The position numbers and the translations under genes are program-made. Below, one piece after another: positions 49,097 through 50,296 of a stretch of 64,000 nucleotides of DNA. The DNA comes from a virus (lineage: Duplodnaviria; Heunggongvirae; Uroviricota; Caudoviricetes). The number at the start of each line of letters is the position of its first letter. The stretch's first letter is position 1. Under the pieces are notes generated by a model. It had not been told where the DNA came from. It was given only the letters and a program-made list of their open reading frames with translations, and ran no database searches. Where the stretch lies: the IMG/VR virus record IMGVR_UViG_3300016476_001281; one strand, given 5' to 3'.

Positions 49097-49169
49097 TCTC
49101 TCGAAGCTCATGTGGACGGGCACTCAGCTTTTAACCGAGGGGTAGTGGGTTCGAGGCCCATCGGGAGAA
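49097..49169 (+). tRNA. tRNA-Lys(UUU), tentative (one mismatch in anticodon stem)
   Basis: Acceptor TCTCTCG/CGGGAGA, T-arm GTGGG-TTCGAGG-CCCAT, anticodon loop CTTTTAA. Confidence 0.5.
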
Positions 49170-49174
49170 CAAAT

Positions 49175-49260
49175 ACAGATTAGCATAATGGTATGCACCA
49201 GGTCTCCAAAACCTTGGCACCTTAGGGTGGTAGGAAAGAGTTCGATTCTCTTAATCTGTG
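49175..49260 (+). tRNA. tRNA-like, 86 nt: Trp-type anticodon loop (CCA) with an extra 4-bp variable-arm hairpin
   Basis: Acceptor ACAGATT/AATCTGT, D-stem GCAT/ATGC, anticodon loop CTCCAAA, T-arm AAGAG-TTCGATT-CTCTT. The extra hairpin is CACC-ttag-GGTG. Confidence 0.4.
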
Positions 49261-49267
49261 CAAAAAA

Positions 49268-49340
49268 GGAGGGGTAGCTCAGTTGGTAGAGCAACGGACT
49301 GAAAATCCGTGTGTCGTGGGTTCGATTCCCACCCTCTCCA
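49268..49340 (+). tRNA. tRNA-Phe(GAA)
   Basis: Canonical GGAGGGGTAGCTCAGTTGGTAGAGC...ACGGA-CTGAAAA-TCCGT...GTGGG-TTCGATT-CCCAC-CCTCTCC-A. Confidence 0.85.
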
Positions 49341-49350
49341 CAGAAATATG

Positions 49351-49438
49351 GTGTTTGTAACCGGTAAAGGCAGCCGACCAGATTGTGGATCTGGAATGAA
49401 TTAATTTTCTAATGCAGGTTCGAATCCCGTCTTACACC
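49351..49438 (+). tRNA. tRNA-His-like (anticodon arm CCAGA-TTGTGGA-TCTGG, GUG) with ~19-nt insertion; possible pseudo/variant
   Basis: The 3' end GCAGG-TTCGAAT-CCCGT-CTTACAC-C is near-identical to tRNA-His at 49855. The 5' acceptor pairs poorly, and there is an extra AATGAATTAATTTTCTAAT segment. Confidence 0.35.
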
Positions 49439-49444
49439 CAACAA

Positions 49445-49517
49445 GGAGCTGTGGCAGATGTGGTCATTGCGCTGGACTGAAAATCCAGAGGAACGGGATC
49501 GTAACCCGTCGGCTCCA
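49445..49517 (+). tRNA. tRNA-Phe(GAA), variant T-loop
   Basis: Acceptor GGAGCTG/CGGCTCC, anticodon arm CTGGA-CTGAAAA-TCCAG, T-arm ACGGG-ATCGTAA-CCCGT. Confidence 0.6.
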
Positions 49518-49524
49518 CAAATAT

Positions 49525-49596
49525 GCAGATTTAGCTGAGACGGTTTAGCGTAGGAGTGAAGTCCCTAAGAGATCGGTTCGATTCCGATAATCTGCA
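49525..49596 (+). tRNA. tRNA, anticodon loop GTGAAGT (GAA-like; isotype uncertain)
   Basis: Acceptor GCAGATT/AATCTGC (perfect), D-stem GCTG/TAGC, anticodon stem TAGGA/CCCTA with an A-C mismatch, T-arm ATCGG-TTCGATT-CCGAT. Confidence 0.5.
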
Positions 49597-49605
49597 CAAG
49601 TATAT

Positions 49606-49676
49606 ACGTCATTGGTGAAATGGTATCATCCTGGTCTCCAAAACCAGTGTTCCAGGTTCGAGTCCTGGATGGCGTG
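49606..49676 (+). tRNA. tRNA-Trp(CCA)
   Basis: Acceptor ACGTCAT/ATGGCGT, anticodon arm CTGGT-CTCCAAA-ACCAG, T-arm CCAGG-TTCGAGT-CCTGG. Confidence 0.7.
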
Positions 49677-49682
49677 CAATAT

Positions 49683-49767
49683 TCCCTCTTAGCTCAGTTG
49701 GTTTGCATTAGCTTAGAGCACCTGACTTTTAATCAGGGGGTCGTAGGTTCGAATCCTACAGGGGGAA
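49683..49767 (+). tRNA. tRNA-Lys(UUU) with ~12-nt D-loop expansion
   Basis: Acceptor TCCCTCT/AGGGGGA, D region GCTCAGTTGG-tttgcattagct-TAGAGC, anticodon arm CCTGA-CTTTTAA-TCAGG, T-arm GTAGG-TTCGAAT-CCTAC. Confidence 0.5.
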
Positions 49768-49778
49768 CAAATAAATTT

Positions 49779-49852
49779 GACTTCGTAGCTCAGTTGGTAG
49801 TAGCACCTCACTTTTAATGAGGGGGTCGTGGGTTCGAGTCCCACCGGGGTCA
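49779..49852 (+). tRNA. tRNA-Lys(UUU)
   Basis: Acceptor GACTTCG/CGGGGTC, anticodon arm CCTCA-CTTTTAA-TGAGG, T-arm GTGGG-TTCGAGT-CCCAC. It is a tandem paralogue of 49683. Confidence 0.75.
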
Positions 49853-49854
49853 CT

Positions 49855-49928
49855 GTGTAGGTAGCTTAATTGGTCAAAGCACTTGGTTGTGAGCCAAGGG
49901 ATTGCGGGTTCAAGTCCCGTCTTACACC
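49855..49928 (+). tRNA. tRNA-His(GUG)
   Basis: Acceptor GTGTAGG/CTTACAC, D-stem GCTT/AAGC, anticodon arm CTTGG-TTGTGAG-CCAAG, T-arm GCGGG-TTCAAGT-CCCGT, discriminator C. Confidence 0.8.
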
Positions 49929-49934
49929 CAAATT

Positions 49935-50024
49935 AGTCTGATGATATAGTGGCATTATTTGGTCGTCGATCCAGTTTACTGGGGTATCTTCGGCAGAACA
50001 CAGGTTCGATTCCTGTTCAGACTA
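49935..50024 (+). tRNA. tRNA-like, 90 nt; internal fold unresolved (one possible fold has anticodon UUA with a pyrimidine at position 37)
   Basis: Perfect acceptor AGTCTGA/TCAGACT and T-arm ACAGG-TTCGATT-CCTGT. The interior holds a tight hairpin TCCAG-ttta-CTGGG and about 17 extra nt. Confidence 0.4.
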
Positions 50025-50056
50025 CTAAGTAAAAAAGTAAAAACAAAAGAATAAAA

Positions 50057-50070
50057 TTTTAATATATAAG
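50057..50070 (+). promoter_or_regulatory. conserved phage box TTTTAATATATAAG (candidate late promoter)
   Basis: Same box as 48893, 50435 and 22987. It ends 2 nt before the ATG at 50073. Confidence 0.45.
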
Positions 50071-50072
50071 TT

Positions 50073-50150
50073 ATGAAAACAATTATAAGTACATCGTCAA
50101 GTTCTTCAAGTCGCTCAAGTAAATTGAGGGAGGTTCTTGTGTATTCATAA
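50073..50150 (+). CDS. small ORF (25 aa, Ser-rich) in the second promoter-sORF-terminator mini-cassette
   Basis: Encodes MKTIISTSSSSSSRSSKLREVLVYS. The cassette architecture is paralogous to that at 48910. Confidence 0.3.
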   Translation: MKTIISTSSSSSSRSSKLREVLVYS

Positions 50151-50173
50151 TTTTTTAAGTAAAAAGTTATTTG

Positions 50174-50209
50174 AAACCCTTGAACCAAAAGTTCAAGGGT
50201 TTTTTTTAT
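50174..50209 (+). terminator. rho-independent terminator
   Basis: Hairpin CCCTTGAAC-caaaa-GTTCAAGGG followed by TTTTTTTT. Confidence 0.7.
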
Positions 50210-50210
50210 T

Positions 50211-50296
50211 GGTTCTATAGTTTAATTGGATAAAACACCTGGTTACGACCCAGGAGACAGGAATGCTTAGTGTAGGTTCGAATCCTACTGGAATCA
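50211..50296 (+). tRNA. tRNA-Arg(ACG) with an unusually long (~17-nt) variable region
   Basis: Acceptor GGTTCTA/TGGAATC, D-stem GTTT/AAAC, anticodon arm CCTGG-TTACGAC-CCAGG, T-arm GTAGG-TTCGAAT-CCTAC. Confidence 0.55.

Follow-up and report, generated by a model that had tools for sequence, protein, structure and literature searches.

Between positions 49097 and 51307 of the window (the whole 64,000-nucleotide stretch of DNA analysed), a giant AT-rich phage carries a cluster of tRNA genes that probably consists of two operons controlled by ribosome-sensing attenuators, in which most of the structurally expanded tRNA genes would be working variants and not debris. Both display the same layout: a promoter motif, then a short leader ORF rich in codons for the tRNAs encoded further down and finally a terminator that adjoins the first tRNA gene. 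The nearest public relatives are 'Mahaphage' genomes of 634–642 kb, predicted to infect Bacteroidetes. The cluster comprises 15 tRNA-shaped genes, identified by combining ARAGORN, which alone detects 11 tRNAs in the window, with a scan for T arms and acceptors and with Rfam:

49097–49169, + strand: tRNA-Lys(UUU), 73 nt, one anticodon-stem mismatch, 35.8 bits
49175–49260, + strand: tRNA-Trp(CCA), 86–87 nt, 13-nt variable-loop hairpin at 49218–49230, G73
49268–49340, + strand: tRNA-Phe(GAA), canonical, found by ARAGORN, 76.2 bits
49350–49438, + strand: tRNA-His(GUG), 88–89 nt, G-1 at 49350, 19-nt variable insert at 49395–49413 (His-49351)
49445–49517, + strand: tRNA-Phe(GAA), atypical T loop (AUCGUAA), 56.2 bits
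49525–49596, + strand: tRNA-Phe(GAA), unusual anticodon loop GUGAAGU (G37), 52.4 bits
49606–49676, + strand: tRNA-Trp(CCA), canonical, 58.8 bits
49683–49767, + strand: tRNA-Lys(UUU), 85 nt, mini-hairpin of ~11 nt (UUGC-AUUA-GC) after G18G19 in the D-loop
49779–49852, + strand: tRNA-Lys(UUU), canonical, 63 bits
49855–49928, + strand: tRNA-His(GUG), canonical cloverleaf, T and not G at -1, 65.2 bits
49935–50024, + strand: tRNA-like RNA, 90 nt, acceptor, D and T arms intact
50211–50296, + strand: tRNA-Arg(ACG), 86 nt, 17-nt variable region at 50255–50271, 59.9 bits
50304–50386, + strand: tRNA-Ser(UGA), class II, next after Arg
50467–51135, + strand: HTH-HNH homing-endonuclease-like ORF inserted in the operon and equipped with a separate TTAATATATA motif (50437–50446)
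51127–51212, + strand: tRNA-Ser(GGA), class II
51222–51310, + strand: tRNA-Ser(GCU), class II, CCA encoded, found by ARAGORN
51315–51345, + strand: terminator-like hairpin with U-tract closing the cluster

The array is redundant, with three Lys, three Phe, two Trp and two His genes. The earlier note had described several isotypes as present in two copies; the pairs are real, but Lys(UUU), with a third gene at 49097, and Phe(GAA) are each present three times. The contrasts that it drew between canonical and aberrant genes hold for His (49855 versus 49351, which has a weak acceptor), Trp (49606 versus 49175, with its extra 4-bp hairpin) and Lys (49779 versus 49683, whose insert of ~11 nt lies at 49703–49713), as does the long variable region of Arg-50211. 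Four genes (Trp-49175, His-49351, Lys-49683 and Arg-50211) contain insertions of 11–19 nt, which are confined to the D-loop and the variable loop; the discriminator bases remain cognate, and the acceptor, anticodon and T arms are kept. The suggestion that these genes are carriers of small insertions was correct. A fifth odd unit, at 49935, has no usable anticodon. Comparison with related phages, as had been proposed, reveals that each expansion is shared with one or more further phage contigs, and the family of Phe-49525 (GUGAAGU loop) is also found in contigs L001, L002 and L014. Among the cluster tRNAs, only Ser-51222 encodes CCA. The 3' trailers start with CA in 13 of the 15 genes (mostly CAAA or CAAT), and this is the actual regularity behind a supposed recurrent CAAATAT spacer, the exact heptamer occurring only twice in the array.

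Judging from their sequence, Arg-50211, Trp-49175 and His-49351 combine class I identities with a class II-like hairpin or long variable region. No other Arg tRNA is present in the operon of Arg-50211; its long-variable orthologues are found in L028 (86 nt, anticodon UCG) and L034 (86 nt), with compensatory changes in the anticodon and T stems, and the variable region measures 16–17 nt in three phages. The insert of Trp-49175 forms a 4-bp hairpin (CACC-UUAG-GGUG), and the gene scores 34 bits at best, with the tRNA-Sec model only. This insert is found only in the window and, identically, in its 88–92% identical relative L034, being missing from the orthologues of L014 and L028. His-49351 has the lowest score of the array (30.4 bits, barely above the Rfam threshold); its acceptor contains U5.U68 and U6.U67, its T stem is interrupted by an A.C mismatch and its variable stem is weakened. 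In the L034 orthologue, the variable stem is a perfect GAGA/UCUC helix, from which the window differs by one compensatory G-C to A-U change. The U.U pairs run in the family, being present also in His genes of 73–74 nt from L014 and L034.

Lys-49683 appears to belong to a phage-specific class of tRNA-Lys carrying a D-loop mini-hairpin. It is missed by ARAGORN in default mode and reaches 42 bits in Rfam solely via a truncated alignment. The D-loop insert, with GAAA, GUAA or GUUA loops, is also carried by L028 (two copies), L030/L031 and L032, and its carriers are Lys tRNAs with three different backbones, from large phage contigs that are Lak-like, GC-rich or of 40% GC; only one match was obtained in 185,579 species genomes. 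No counterpart of this variant was found in the literature, and we know of none. Furthermore, a class II-like variable arm of 3–4 bp with a GAAA/GCAA-type loop is borne by 18 Lys tRNAs from more distant relatives, and its stems covary, differing in sequence and keeping their complementarity; in L002, all three Lys tRNAs that ARAGORN detects after a Lys leader have a long variable arm.

The element at 49935 appears to be a conserved tRNA-shaped RNA devoid of any anticodon. Its acceptor (7 bp) and T arm (5 bp) are confirmed to be perfect, as had been recognized previously, and the standard anticodon arm is replaced by a long irregular hairpin with the core GUCGAUCC..GGGGUAUCUUC and a hypervariable tip of 6–11 nt. 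Hits above 100 bits number four (window, L014, L021 and L028), the core hairpin is also present in L034, and the default mode of ARAGORN misses the element. The UUA anticodon once read in one of its folds is discarded, that loop being hypervariable among homologues.

The extra hairpins all project from one corner of the L-shape (D-loop position 20 or variable loop) and would most likely alter the view that tRNA-binding proteins, such as nucleases, have of the tRNA while leaving decoding intact, although this purpose is the least certain part of our reading. By analogy with phage tRNA-Lys and tRNA-Tyr precedents, they may act as decoys or in the evasion of anticodon nucleases. The expanded tRNAs would be aminoacylated; tRNAs tagged with hairpins are known to stay active in translation (PMC7590224).

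A less likely, but serious, alternative is that the inserts are neutral passengers, i.e. that working tRNAs carry purposeless hairpins in a redundant array churned by homing endonucleases and recombination, where short insertions arise everywhere and persist only in the D-loop and variable loop. HNH endonuclease genes do occur within the arrays, and insert-free orthologues of Trp (L014, L028) and Arg (L014, L021, L028) exist, so that the inserts are dispensable for basic function. In addition, slippage is suggested by the Trp insert, which opens with a near repeat of the anticodon-stem strand before it (ACCTTGG / ACCTTAGG), and no part of the His gene evolves faster than its insert. However, passengers would hardly account for a Lys D-loop hairpin that spans three phage lineages and as many diverged backbones, for Lys variable arms that hold their stem-plus-tetraloop architecture despite changes in stem sequence, for the constant length of the Arg variable region, for the compensatory change in the His variable stem or for hairpins borne by the same tRNA face in four isotypes.

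It is improbable that the expanded copies are unprocessed and uncharged pseudo-tRNAs left by tandem duplication, which the earlier note had considered. The low score and helix defects of His-49351, the 34 bits of Trp-49175 and the escape of Lys-49683 and 49935 from the default mode of ARAGORN would fit such decay, but scores are low because the models penalise long loops. As a general explanation, pseudogenes are unsupported because position ~20 of the D-loop and the variable loop, the only places where inserts are found, are the sites where the L-shape tolerates extra nucleotides; the other arms are otherwise perfect, the expansions are shared with other phages and compensatory changes are observed. 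Gene by gene, Arg-50211, at 59.9 bits and without a second Arg tRNA in its operon, is a poor candidate, and the U.U pairs of His-49351 are shared with His genes of normal length; this His gene is nevertheless the one expanded gene that is still plausible as a decaying copy.

Even less credible is an identity switch, in which SerRS (or LeuRS) would charge the expanded tRNAs and UGG, CGN, CAY or AAR codons would be read partly as Ser or Leu in deliberate recoding or mistranslation. SerRS reads a long variable arm and G73 (PMC7609411), Trp-49175 has both a 4-bp hairpin and G73, and natural allo-tRNAs combine a Ser-type body with a non-Ser anticodon (PMC5389517). However, the variable stems have only 3–4 bp followed by 4–6 unpaired nt, compared with 5–6 bp in the Ser tRNAs of the cluster, the cognate marks (His G-1:C73, Lys and Arg A73, anticodons) are kept, the acceptor/T geometry is 7/5 and not 8/4 or 9/3, and the leaders group the expanded tRNAs with their cognate codons.

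The larger result is the presence of leader ORF/terminator switches flanking the array, on which the earlier note was silent. Their elements are as follows:

48816–48850, + strand: host-type (Bacteroidetes-like) promoter candidate, TTTG ... TAnnTTTG, with TACTTTTG at 48843–48850
48894–48903, + strand: phage promoter-like motif TTAATATATA, 6 nt 5' of the leader A start codon
48910–49011, + strand: leader ORF A, MRTTFKHTSFSKSFKWFSHKFGCMSMSKSSQMK and stop, with Phe/Lys/His/Trp at 14 of 32 post-Met codons
48937–48974, + strand: region 1:2 hairpin, in which the F-S-K-S-F-K-W-F codons pair with downstream CCAC..GTTCGG
48967–48974, + strand: region 2, antiterminator, AAGTTCGG, codons K20-F21-G22, complementary to the terminator 5' arm
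49055–49092, + strand: intrinsic terminator A, stem at 49055–49082 then U-tract, ending 5–9 nt before the first tRNA
50059–50068, + strand: second copy of the TTAATATATA motif, 4 nt 5' of the leader C start codon
50073–50150, + strand: leader ORF C, MKTIISTSSSSSSRSSKLREVLVYS and stop, with Ser/Arg at 12 of 24 post-Met codons
50132–50144, + strand: leader C antiterminator strand, GGUUC..., pairing with the terminator 5' arm
50175–50209, + strand: intrinsic terminator C, directly adjoining tRNA-Arg

The host-type candidate would match a Bacteroidetes-like promoter consensus, and leader A is preceded by a similar sequence in three other contigs (L001, L002 and L014). The TTAATATATA motif is present in 11 copies in the window, compared with 3.0 expected (at least 11 in 0 of 100 shuffles), and all 11 lie 4–26 nt upstream of an ORF start, bona fide ORFs and leaders alike. 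Leader A is enriched in its four residues relative to the window proteome (background 0.14, P=5e-5) and its core, HK.FSKS.KWF, is kept in 13 loci. Most type A and C loci were found with leader-derived patterns, which inflates their apparent conservation; independent of these patterns are, for type A, the window and contigs L001, L002 and L014 and, for type C, L034. The type A terminator is paired at 100%, with compensatory changes in 8 of 9 pairs over 12 loci, and the antiterminator at 97% (4 of 6 pairs compensatory, 0 of 500 shuffles); when the transcript is truncated before the 3' arm, region 2 pairs with 49055–49066 in the fold. The 1:2 hairpin is paired in 88% of cells versus ~40% in slid controls, its covariation being weak because the search pattern had a fixed 5' side. 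In the window clade, the leader A stop codon lies 33 nt past region 2, and therefore termination in the 'fast' state must depend on this hairpin.

Leader C is likewise enriched in Ser and Arg (P=3e-6 versus the window proteome). It includes CGC, absent from the 476 Arg codons of the phage ORFs, and UCG, used for 3 of their 1453 Ser codons. These two are precisely what Arg-ACG and Ser-UGA, encoded downstream, decode; L034 has CGT in place of CGC. In the type C family, the terminator is paired at 94% and the antiterminator at 88% (5 of 7 pairs compensatory, 0 of 500 shuffles), the antiterminator of the window itself being weak (five G-C/A-U pairs and an AU-rich helix).

Six leader types were found at related loci, and in each of them the codons match the isotypes of the downstream block:

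Type A, HK.FSKS.KWF: His/Phe/Lys/Trp (window block Lys/Trp/Phe/His)
Type B, MKTKLKYKR: Lys (enrichment P=1e-3)
Type C, ..TSSSSSSRSS..: Arg-ACG and Ser-UGA/GGA/GCU
Type D, ..IINIEAIGYAYEAG..: Tyr/Glu/Ile-UAU/Gly/Ala (enrichment P=5e-3)
Type E, ..YESYYEEG / ..YYYEAEG..: Tyr/Glu
Type F, ..ISIAVIGNGAGAI..: Ile-UAU/Gly, and also Ala in L007

The leader-to-array pairing as found beats 718 of 720 permutations, and both terminator and antiterminator helices covary over 11–12 related loci. Leader B, although it forms a covarying hairpin, lacks both a U-tract and a promoter motif of its own, and the initiator-like tRNA-Met of LR745206 is preceded by the TTAATATATA motif without leader. As the U-tracts end 1–9 nt 5' of the first tRNA, there is no space for a further promoter. 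In folds of truncated transcripts, the terminator 5' arm pairs with the leader ORF; this pairing persists when a ribosome sits on the regulatory codons and disappears when region 2 is occupied by it. Full-length leaders at equilibrium always adopt the terminator fold, and therefore the switch depends on a kinetic, co-transcriptional argument.

The leaders, if translated, would act as follows. When cognate charged tRNAs are abundant, the ribosome would cross the leader, the antiterminator strand would be covered or re-sequestered in the 1:2 hairpin, the terminator would form and little tRNA transcript would be made. When they are short, the ribosome would stall on the regulatory codons and the antiterminator strand would pair with the terminator 5' arm, allowing RNA polymerase to read through into the tRNA genes. 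The tRNA supply would be under negative feedback, sensed by tRNA species. That the short ORFs merely encode ordinary small proteins with their own terminators, the tRNAs being independent and the codon match coincidental, is highly unlikely: the leaders do share their promoter motif with real genes and the peptide stretch FSKS.KWFS.QFGTE is well conserved, but this stretch corresponds to the 1:2 hairpin and to the antiterminator strand that covaries with the terminator arm, the gap before the first tRNA is too short for a promoter, six leader types match six isotype sets and the rare CGC and UCG codons are specific to leader C.

In its anatomy, the cluster resembles those of T4/T5 type, with tight packing, very short spacers, internal HNH-type ORFs and a non-decoding tRNA-shaped RNA; in T4, the embedded homing endonucleases are exemplified by SegB and the tRNA-like stable RNAs by species 1 and 2. 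To our knowledge, no leader-peptide attenuators lie upstream of the T4 and T5 clusters. The expanded tRNAs can also be likened to nematode nev-tRNAs, which are unusual tRNAs with long arms. Like class II tRNAs (bacterial Leu, Ser and Tyr) and allo-tRNAs (PMC5389517), they bear a variable-region stem-loop between the anticodon and T arms, but they display class I anticodons and identity marks (Lys, Arg, Trp, His), the standard 7/5 acceptor/T geometry and shorter arms (3–4 bp with a 4–6 nt 3' tail). Phage tRNAs are known to escape host defences, T5 tRNA-Lys escaping AriB of PARIS (PMC11464382) and T5 tRNA-Tyr the retron PtuAB (PMC11555353), and mycobacteriophage tRNAs include anticodon-loop variants (PMC10264068). 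The cluster similarly has extra, structurally deviant copies, notably of Lys, diversified paralogues per isotype and one Phe family with an altered anticodon loop (G37); however, published resistance relies on substitutions in the anticodon stem-loop, whereas the marks of the cluster, putative in their role, are hairpins added far from the anticodon.

Like T-box riboswitches, none of which was detected in the window with Rfam, the leaders would sense the status of specific tRNAs through an antiterminator that controls terminator read-through. However, T-boxes bind uncharged tRNA directly, without ORF or ribosome, and target synthetase or amino-acid genes, whereas the phage leaders would rely on codon translation. 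No Rfam leader family scores above threshold (weak His_leader and Phe_leader matches at 24–25 bits, for cut-offs of 49–55), and no description of phage leader ORFs sensing downstream-encoded tRNAs was found in the literature. The arrangement nevertheless appears to be that of classical ribosome-mediated attenuation, applied to tRNA genes. As in the attenuators of amino-acid operons (trp, his, phe, thr and ilv) and of pheST, a short leader ORF carries regulatory codons, exclusive 1:2, 2:3 (antiterminator) and 3:4 (terminator with U-tract) helices would compete and a stall would mean read-through; as in the thr and ilv leaders, several amino acids are mixed. Unlike these attenuators, the switches are phage-encoded, would distinguish isoacceptors (CGC, UCG and AUA codons) and would regulate tRNA genes instead of biosynthetic enzymes or synthetases. 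The sensor would therefore read molecules under its own control, and the leaders appear to sense a shortage of the very tRNAs encoded downstream.

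Two blocks of tRNA genes in the window lie directly downstream of two leader/antiterminator/terminator switches (48894-49092 and 50059-50209), the elements being arranged in the order promoter motif, leader ORF, three alternative helices, U-tract and tRNA genes. ARAGORN detects 11 tRNA genes in the window, all on the + strand, from 49097 to 51310; Rfam adds a Lys-like unit (49702-49767) and class-II units at 50303, 51126 and 51221, and a scan for a T arm and a 7-bp acceptor finds 15 tRNA-shaped units.

Leader ORFs and tRNA-shaped units of the window
48910-49011, + strand: leader ORF A, MRTTFKHTSFSKSFKWFSHKFGCMSMSKSSQMK
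49097, + strand: tRNA-Lys-UUU
49175, + strand: tRNA-Trp-CCA, 86 nt
49268, + strand: tRNA-Phe
49351, + strand: tRNA-His-GUG, 88 nt, with G-1 at 49350
49445, + strand: tRNA-Phe
49525-49596, + strand: tRNA-Phe-GAA, with the unusual anticodon loop GUGAAGU
49606, + strand: tRNA-Trp
49683, + strand: tRNA-Lys, 85 nt
49779, + strand: tRNA-Lys, canonical
49855, + strand: tRNA-His-GUG
49935, + strand: 90-nt tRNA-like unit
50073-50150, + strand: leader ORF C, MKTIISTSSSSSSRSSKLREVLVYS
50211, + strand: tRNA-Arg-ACG, 86 nt
50304, + strand: tRNA-Ser-UGA
between Ser-UGA 50304 and Ser-GGA 51127: HNH ORF
51127, + strand: tRNA-Ser-GGA
51222, + strand: tRNA-Ser-GCU

The decamer TTAATATATA is found 4-6 nt upstream of each leader ORF, and each leader is followed by a strong hairpin and a U-tract that end 1-9 nt before the first tRNA. 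The window carries 11 copies of this decamer (4996, 13133, 17207, 22989, 33929, 46667, 48894, 50059, 50437, 60255 and 62996), whereas 3 would be expected. Each copy lies 4-26 nt ahead of the start of an ORF, and the ORFs concerned include nine ordinary ones of at least 142 aa. The decamer is a candidate phage promoter and, if it is one, the copies spaced by 4-6 nt would give leaderless or nearly leaderless mRNAs.

The codons of the leaders correspond to the isotypes encoded behind them. Phe, Lys, His and Trp abound in leader A, and the tRNAs of the block behind it are Lys, Trp, Phe and His only; leader C is rich in Ser and Arg and lies ahead of Arg-ACG and three Ser tRNAs. Relative to the window proteome, the codon enrichment is significant for both (P=5e-5 for A and 3e-6 for C) as well as for two further leader types of relatives (1e-3 for B and 5e-3 for D), and the true pairing of leaders with arrays is better than 718 of 720 permutations. 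Furthermore, leader C uses CGC and UCG, the codons read by the downstream Arg-ACG and Ser-UGA, which the phage's own ORFs use in 0/476 Arg codons and 3/1453 Ser codons, respectively, and its conserved Arg codon is not AGA, the usual Arg codon of the phage. The same ORFs, whose codon usage is very strongly biased, include one CGA and one CGG among the 476 Arg codons and nine UCC among the 1453 Ser codons. Ile leaders of relatives use AUA, matching tRNA-Ile-UAU.

Extended nucleotide matches in the phage collection are limited to two 'uncultured phage' genomes of 634,780 and 642,428 bp (L001 and L002). The Mahaphage clade, whose predicted replication takes place in Bacteroidetes, includes the Lak phages (PMC7162821). 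The search for relatives via the neighbouring 954-aa virion protein returned none; relatives were obtained by DNA patterns drawn from the leaders, from the 90-nt element and from two tRNA segments, the D-loop of Lys and the variable region of Trp. The closest array, that of locus L034, displays 88-92% identity across the array, and loci L014, L021 and L028 belong to the same sub-clade at a greater distance. Type A units occur in 13 loci and type C units in 12 (L034 counted), numbers in which the leader-derived retrieval patterns bias the apparent conservation, the pattern-independent occurrences being those of the window, L001, L002 and L014 (type A) and of L034 (type C).

Leaders of other compositions precede other isotypes in the relatives: MRTIINIEAIGYAYEAG.. 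before Tyr, Glu, Ile-UAU, Gly and Ala (L010), ..YYYEAEG.. and ..YESYYEEG.. before Glu and Tyr (L007 and LR745206), and ..ISVVIATGAG.. and ..ISIAVIGNGAGAI.. before Ile-UAU and Gly (and Ala). Across a 50-kb segment of LR745206, all blocks of elongator tRNAs have a leader; an initiator-like tRNA-Met has the promoter motif and lacks a leader. Type B (MK[TS]K[LR]KYK[RP]), absent from the window, precedes blocks of 3-4 Lys tRNAs in seven loci. It is a Lys-rich mini-ORF of nine codons (L001 4865-4935, L002 ~4756-4825; also L003, L006, L015, L022 and L026), immediately followed by a covarying 10-12 bp hairpin. As this hairpin is devoid of any U-tract, and the mini-ORF of its own promoter motif, type B cannot be a standard attenuator.

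Four regions can be distinguished in each switch: the regulatory codons (region 1), the antiterminator strand (region 2) and the 5' and 3' arms of the terminator (regions 3 and 4). In an alignment of 12 leaders, the type A terminator is 100% paired, with compensatory changes in 8/9 pairs. GUUCGG (codons Phe-Gly), located inside the ORF, is complementary to the 5' arm of this terminator (97% paired, 4/6 compensatory), the two strands varying together as GUUCGG/CCGAAC, AUUCGA/UCGAAU and ACUUGG/CCAAGU; none of 500 shuffles reaches the observed value, and slid controls do not exceed 64% paired. For type C, the antiterminator is 88% paired (5/7 compensatory, 0/500 shuffles) and the terminator 94% paired; the window's own type C antiterminator is weak. 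In addition, a three-part hairpin, in which region 1 pairs with region 2, encodes the conserved peptide core FSKS.KWFS.QFGTE. This 1:2 hairpin is 88% paired versus about 40% in slid controls, and its covariation is weak because the search pattern fixed the 5' side.

Switching was evaluated by folding transcripts cut before the terminator 3' arm, with or without a ribosome footprint, and by covariation counts. In the truncated folds, 49055-49066 pairs with 48967-48974 (type A) and 50175-50186 pairs with 50132-50144 (type C). The 2:3 pairing survives a footprint placed on the upstream regulatory codons and is lost once the footprint extends to region 2. The terminator always forms in equilibrium folds of the full-length leaders, with or without footprint, and these folds do not discriminate the two states, as expected for a kinetic switch.

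Taken together, these features point to a ribosome-mediated attenuation of phage tRNA genes, in which the leaders would be translated. When a cognate charged tRNA is short, the ribosome would stall in region 1 and thereby free region 2, which would pair with region 3 and let the polymerase proceed into the tRNA genes. When this tRNA is ample, the ribosome would pass and, the 1:2 hairpin being re-formed or region 2 being covered, the 3:4 hairpin would terminate transcription. The switches would thereby keep the supply of phage tRNAs under negative feedback. None of the Rfam leader families matches the window above threshold, and the weak matches to His_leader, Phe_leader, PyrR and YrlA, all below threshold, were discarded as evidence of membership. 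A full-text literature search, thin on subscription journals, found neither tRNA genes nor phage tRNA arrays described as controlled by leader-peptide attenuation.

Several tRNAs of the array are longer than usual, and the expansions pointed out by the earlier note are found again on closer folding. Indeed, Trp-49175 carries a 13-nt extra hairpin (CACC-UUAG-GGUG) in its variable loop, His-49351 a 19-nt AT-rich variable insert together with a weak acceptor that includes two U.U pairs, Lys-49683 a D-loop insert of about 11 nt and Arg-50211 a variable region of 17 nt. The CAAATAT spacer that this note saw recurring between genes holds only in part: the exact heptamer occurs twice only, and trailers starting with CA recur in 13 of the 15 genes. 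CA is located directly past the discriminator in these 13, and CCA is encoded at Ser-51222 only (49169-51310), which implies 3' trimming and CCA addition.

Against Rfam RF00005 (gathering threshold 29 bits, full-length alignment), Arg-50211 scores 59.9 bits and His-49351 30.4 bits, both at full length, and Lys-49683 scores 42.1 bits through a truncated 5' alignment only. Trp-49175 is reported under tRNA-Sec only, with 34.4 bits, under the 47-bit threshold of that model, and the 90-nt unit 49935 has no reported match in the Rfam scan. Trp-49175, Lys-49683 and Arg-50211 fold into cloverleaves whose acceptor is 7 bp long; their T stem, of 5 bp, bears a GTTCRANNC-type loop, and their anticodon stem, of 5 bp as well, a 7-nt loop including U33. 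His-49351 has, besides its U.U acceptor pairs, one A.C mismatch in the T stem. Discriminators are retained (A73 in Lys and Arg, G73 in Trp and G-1:C73 in His). The intron mode of ARAGORN proposes to read Lys-49683 as a 'Leu(UAG) with a 10-nt intron', a reading rejected on the equivalent anticodon stem of L028, which is full of mismatches; the Lys reading gives a perfect anticodon stem and the loop CUUUUAA.

Two unexpanded families also have unusual features. The tRNA-Phe at 49525-49596 has G rather than A at position 37, a position normally hypermodified in tRNA-Phe, and its family is also found in L001, L002 and L014 (UUGAAGN in relatives). The 'canonical' tRNA-His-GUG (49854-49855) has T, not G, at -1 in the window, L014 (~4100) and L028 (1440); the other His family, expanded 49351 included, encodes G-1 opposite C73, and its tandem U.U pairs (5-68 and 6-67) are present in the window, L014 and L034 and absent in L028.

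The expanded copies could be pseudo-tRNAs, as the earlier note proposed. Pseudogenes would have disrupted helices and lesions that relatives do not share; here, the lesions are confined to loops and common to relatives, so that this proposal was given up except for His-49351, left as uncertain. All inserts lie in the D-loop or the variable loop, and the remaining helices are kept, the defects of His-49351 aside. Both loops tolerate extra nucleotides and are neighbours in the L-shape of tRNAs. The Trp insert is identical in L034, and the orthologues of L014 and L028 (73-74 nt) lack it. The long form of Arg, with a 16-17 nt variable region starting with AGACA, exists in L034 (86 nt, ACG) and L028 (86 nt, UCG), with compensatory changes in the anticodon and T stems; short Arg-ACG genes (73-74 nt) are found in L014, L021 and L028, and the long form is the sole Arg tRNA behind leader C of the window.

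The Lys D-loop insert is present in two copies in L028 (UUGC-GAAA-GC and UUGC-GUAA-GC) and on quite different Lys backbones in L030 and L031, two G+C-rich viral contigs of about 230 kb. It also occurs, on the backbone of Lys-49779 of the window, in L032, a 287-kb contig (40% G+C) of phage-like look binned in a Bacteroidales MAG. This was its single match among 185,579 species genomes, which indicates a trait of phages; an origin as a host trait was rejected, the only match lying on this phage-like contig. No precedent for a D-loop mini-hairpin in tRNA-Lys was found in the literature search. Relatives at a greater distance (L001, L002, L003, L015, L016, L019, L022 and L026) carry Lys-UUU or Lys-CUU tRNAs of 82-91 nt, whose variable region is made of 1 nt, a 3-4 bp stem with a GAAA/GCAA/UUAU-type loop and 4 nt. 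Their stems vary yet remain complementary (GAGA/UCUC, UACC/GGUA, GGAU/AUCC, GAC/GUC, GAAC/GUUC and others), and in L002, ARAGORN calls three Lys tRNAs downstream of the Lys leader, all of this kind.

The case of His-49351 is less clear. Its 3' end resembles that of His-49855, as a recent chimera or pseudogene might, a view downgraded to uncertain on two grounds. First, U5.U68 and U6.U67 are also seen in insert-free His genes of L014 and L034, and the weak acceptor is therefore a family trait, not decay. Second, L034 has the same 89-nt gene, with an insert that folds into a flawless GAGA-CAUA-UCUC hairpin. Of the nine differences that separate the window copy from it, six or seven lie inside the insert, and the window insert displays one double compensatory change (G-C to A-U) and one broken pair. 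Globally, the location of the inserts in tolerant loops only, the maintenance of helices and discriminators, and the conservation of the added elements as hairpins argue for functional variants, as far as sequences can tell, the window His-49351 being the least convincing one owing to its extra A.C in the T stem and its 30.4 bits. Slippage duplication is a plausible origin of the Trp insert and is unsupported for the Arg insert, since the L028 orthologue has no repeat. Tracts of much larger size interrupt further tRNA-shaped units of large phages, related or unrelated, one with a ~45-nt D-region insert (L034, reverse strand, 694-790) and one with a ~90-nt interruption resembling a nested tRNA-like sequence (L030 ~1470-1640; L030/L031).

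The 90-nt unit 49935 (49935-50024) is of another nature. The earlier note called its interior uninterpretable, and indeed no anticodon arm can be folded from it; the unit differs in this from a cloverleaf. The acceptor and T arms are identical in the homologues of L014, L021 and L028, and the D stem shows two compensatory changes. The interval between the D and T arms forms a long irregular hairpin with a conserved core, GUCGAUCC...GGGGUAUCUUC, and a tip variable in length (6-11 nt) and sequence. The UUA anticodon proposed from one fold does not hold, nor does any other: the ARAGORN calls differ for each homologue (Leu-CAG, 4-nt CGAT, Asp-AUC) and fall in a hypervariable loop. A covariance model of this unit finds only four sequences above 100 bits (window, L014, L021 and L028), the next-best matches being ordinary tRNAs, first a tRNA-Glu at 42 bits; in the L034 counterpart, the D and T arms have diverged and the core hairpin is kept. 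With no consistent anticodon, a hypervariable tip and conserved arms and core, the unit is therefore a tRNA-shaped RNA that is conserved and does not decode. Between Phe and Trp, L001 (4600-4682) and L002 (4581-4665) also carry tRNA-like units whose acceptor and T arms are good and whose interiors are uninterpretable; the covariance model does not recognize them and, as it found four strong homologues only, they were not placed in this family.

The window has a G+C content of 25-33%, and most of its proteins have no Pfam family. Stop-codon reassignment is known in Lak phages; the window shows no sign of it, long ORFs being intact under table 11 (standard code) with TAA (32), TAG (5) and TGA (1) as stops. 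The array is surrounded by two HNH endonuclease genes and by virion or tail-spike-like proteins. HNH/HTH homing-endonuclease-like genes lie in or beside the tRNA arrays of the window (50467-51135, and 43183-44256 on the - strand), L014 (~4499-5270) and L028 (~238-640); as their positions differ between relatives, they may drive array rearrangement, duplication and paralogue exchange. Just upstream of the array, a 134-aa ORF (47193-47597) matches the phrog_1460 'tRNA amidotransferase' family (E=3e-20), which suggests a translation-related neighbourhood. A 418-aa ORF (41075-42331) has a weak, sub-threshold nucleotidyltransferase match. A gene in or beside the arrays of L002 (~5424-6140) and L028 (~1726-2470) encodes a product starting with MKYLIGIQPTGR[IL]HIGNYLG, which we take from this motif to be Trp-tRNA-synthetase-like.

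Helix covariation, leader-codon/isotype correspondence and conserved tRNA expansions coexist in these arrays, and it is conceivable, if rather doubtful, that switches and expansions form a single system, acting as a damage-sensing reserve of tRNAs. In it, the leader ORFs would detect the depletion of particular tRNA species, whether caused by host anticodon nucleases, by phage-induced destruction of host tRNAs or by the demand of an AT-rich proteome, and transcription of the phage tRNA paralogues would be released only upon such depletion. With hairpins added to their D-loops and variable arms and with diversified stems, these paralogues would be cleaved poorly by the same nucleases, and the anticodon-less 49935 could act as a co-expressed decoy. 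Host anticodon nucleases target Lys, Arg, His-type and Tyr tRNAs. It may also be inferred, less securely, that hairpins at the D-loop/variable-loop corner of Lys, Arg, Trp and His tRNAs alter their recognition by tRNA-binding proteins. Small hairpin tags on tRNAs are compatible with translation (PMC7590224), and phage variants of tRNA-Lys and tRNA-Tyr, through substitutions in the anticodon stem-loop, neutralise the nucleases of PARIS and of a retron (PMC11464382, PMC11555353). As SerRS recognizes a long variable arm and G73 (PMC7609411), mis-serylation of Trp-49175 was considered and appears unlikely.

The purpose of phage tRNAs has been debated for some 50 years (PMC10264068), the competing explanations being codon compensation, replacement of host tRNAs that have been degraded, and evasion of tRNA-targeting defences. 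If the proposed attenuation is real, a cis-encoded sensor would provide evidence straight from the genome that each isoacceptor is supplied according to need, and the choice of sensed codons, such as CGC and UCG, hardly used by the phage itself, would reveal the tRNAs about which the phage 'worries'. The extra hairpins of Lys, Arg, Trp and His are natural and apparently functional departures from the class I shape, of interest for tRNA engineering and for how nucleases and synthetases read the tRNA body.

The expanded tRNAs are similar to class II tRNAs in shape, with a paired extra arm of 4 bp and a UUAG loop in Trp-49175, of 3 bp (window) or 4 bp (L034) in His, of about 5 bp in the irregular stem of Arg-50211 and of 3-4 covarying bp in the Lys of relatives, but not in isotype, as their anticodons (CCA, GUG, ACG and UUU/CUU) are not those of the bacterial class II tRNAs (Leu, Ser and Tyr). 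They also differ from allo-tRNAs and tRNA-Sec, whose 8/4 or 9/3 branch (12 or 13 bp) is absent, all units folding as 7/5; all tRNA-Sec matches of Rfam in the window are below threshold. The switches work like the trp, his, thr and ilv attenuators, with which they share a short ORF rich in regulatory codons upstream of a terminator, an intrinsic terminator (G+C-rich hairpin and U-tract) between leader and genes, and a mutually exclusive, covarying antiterminator that involves the leader ORF sequence. However, they are encoded by a phage and their targets are tRNAs and an inserted HNH ORF instead of genes of amino-acid biosynthesis, transport or tRNA synthetases; if confirmed, they would extend classical attenuation, known from textbooks for amino-acid and synthetase genes, to tRNA genes.
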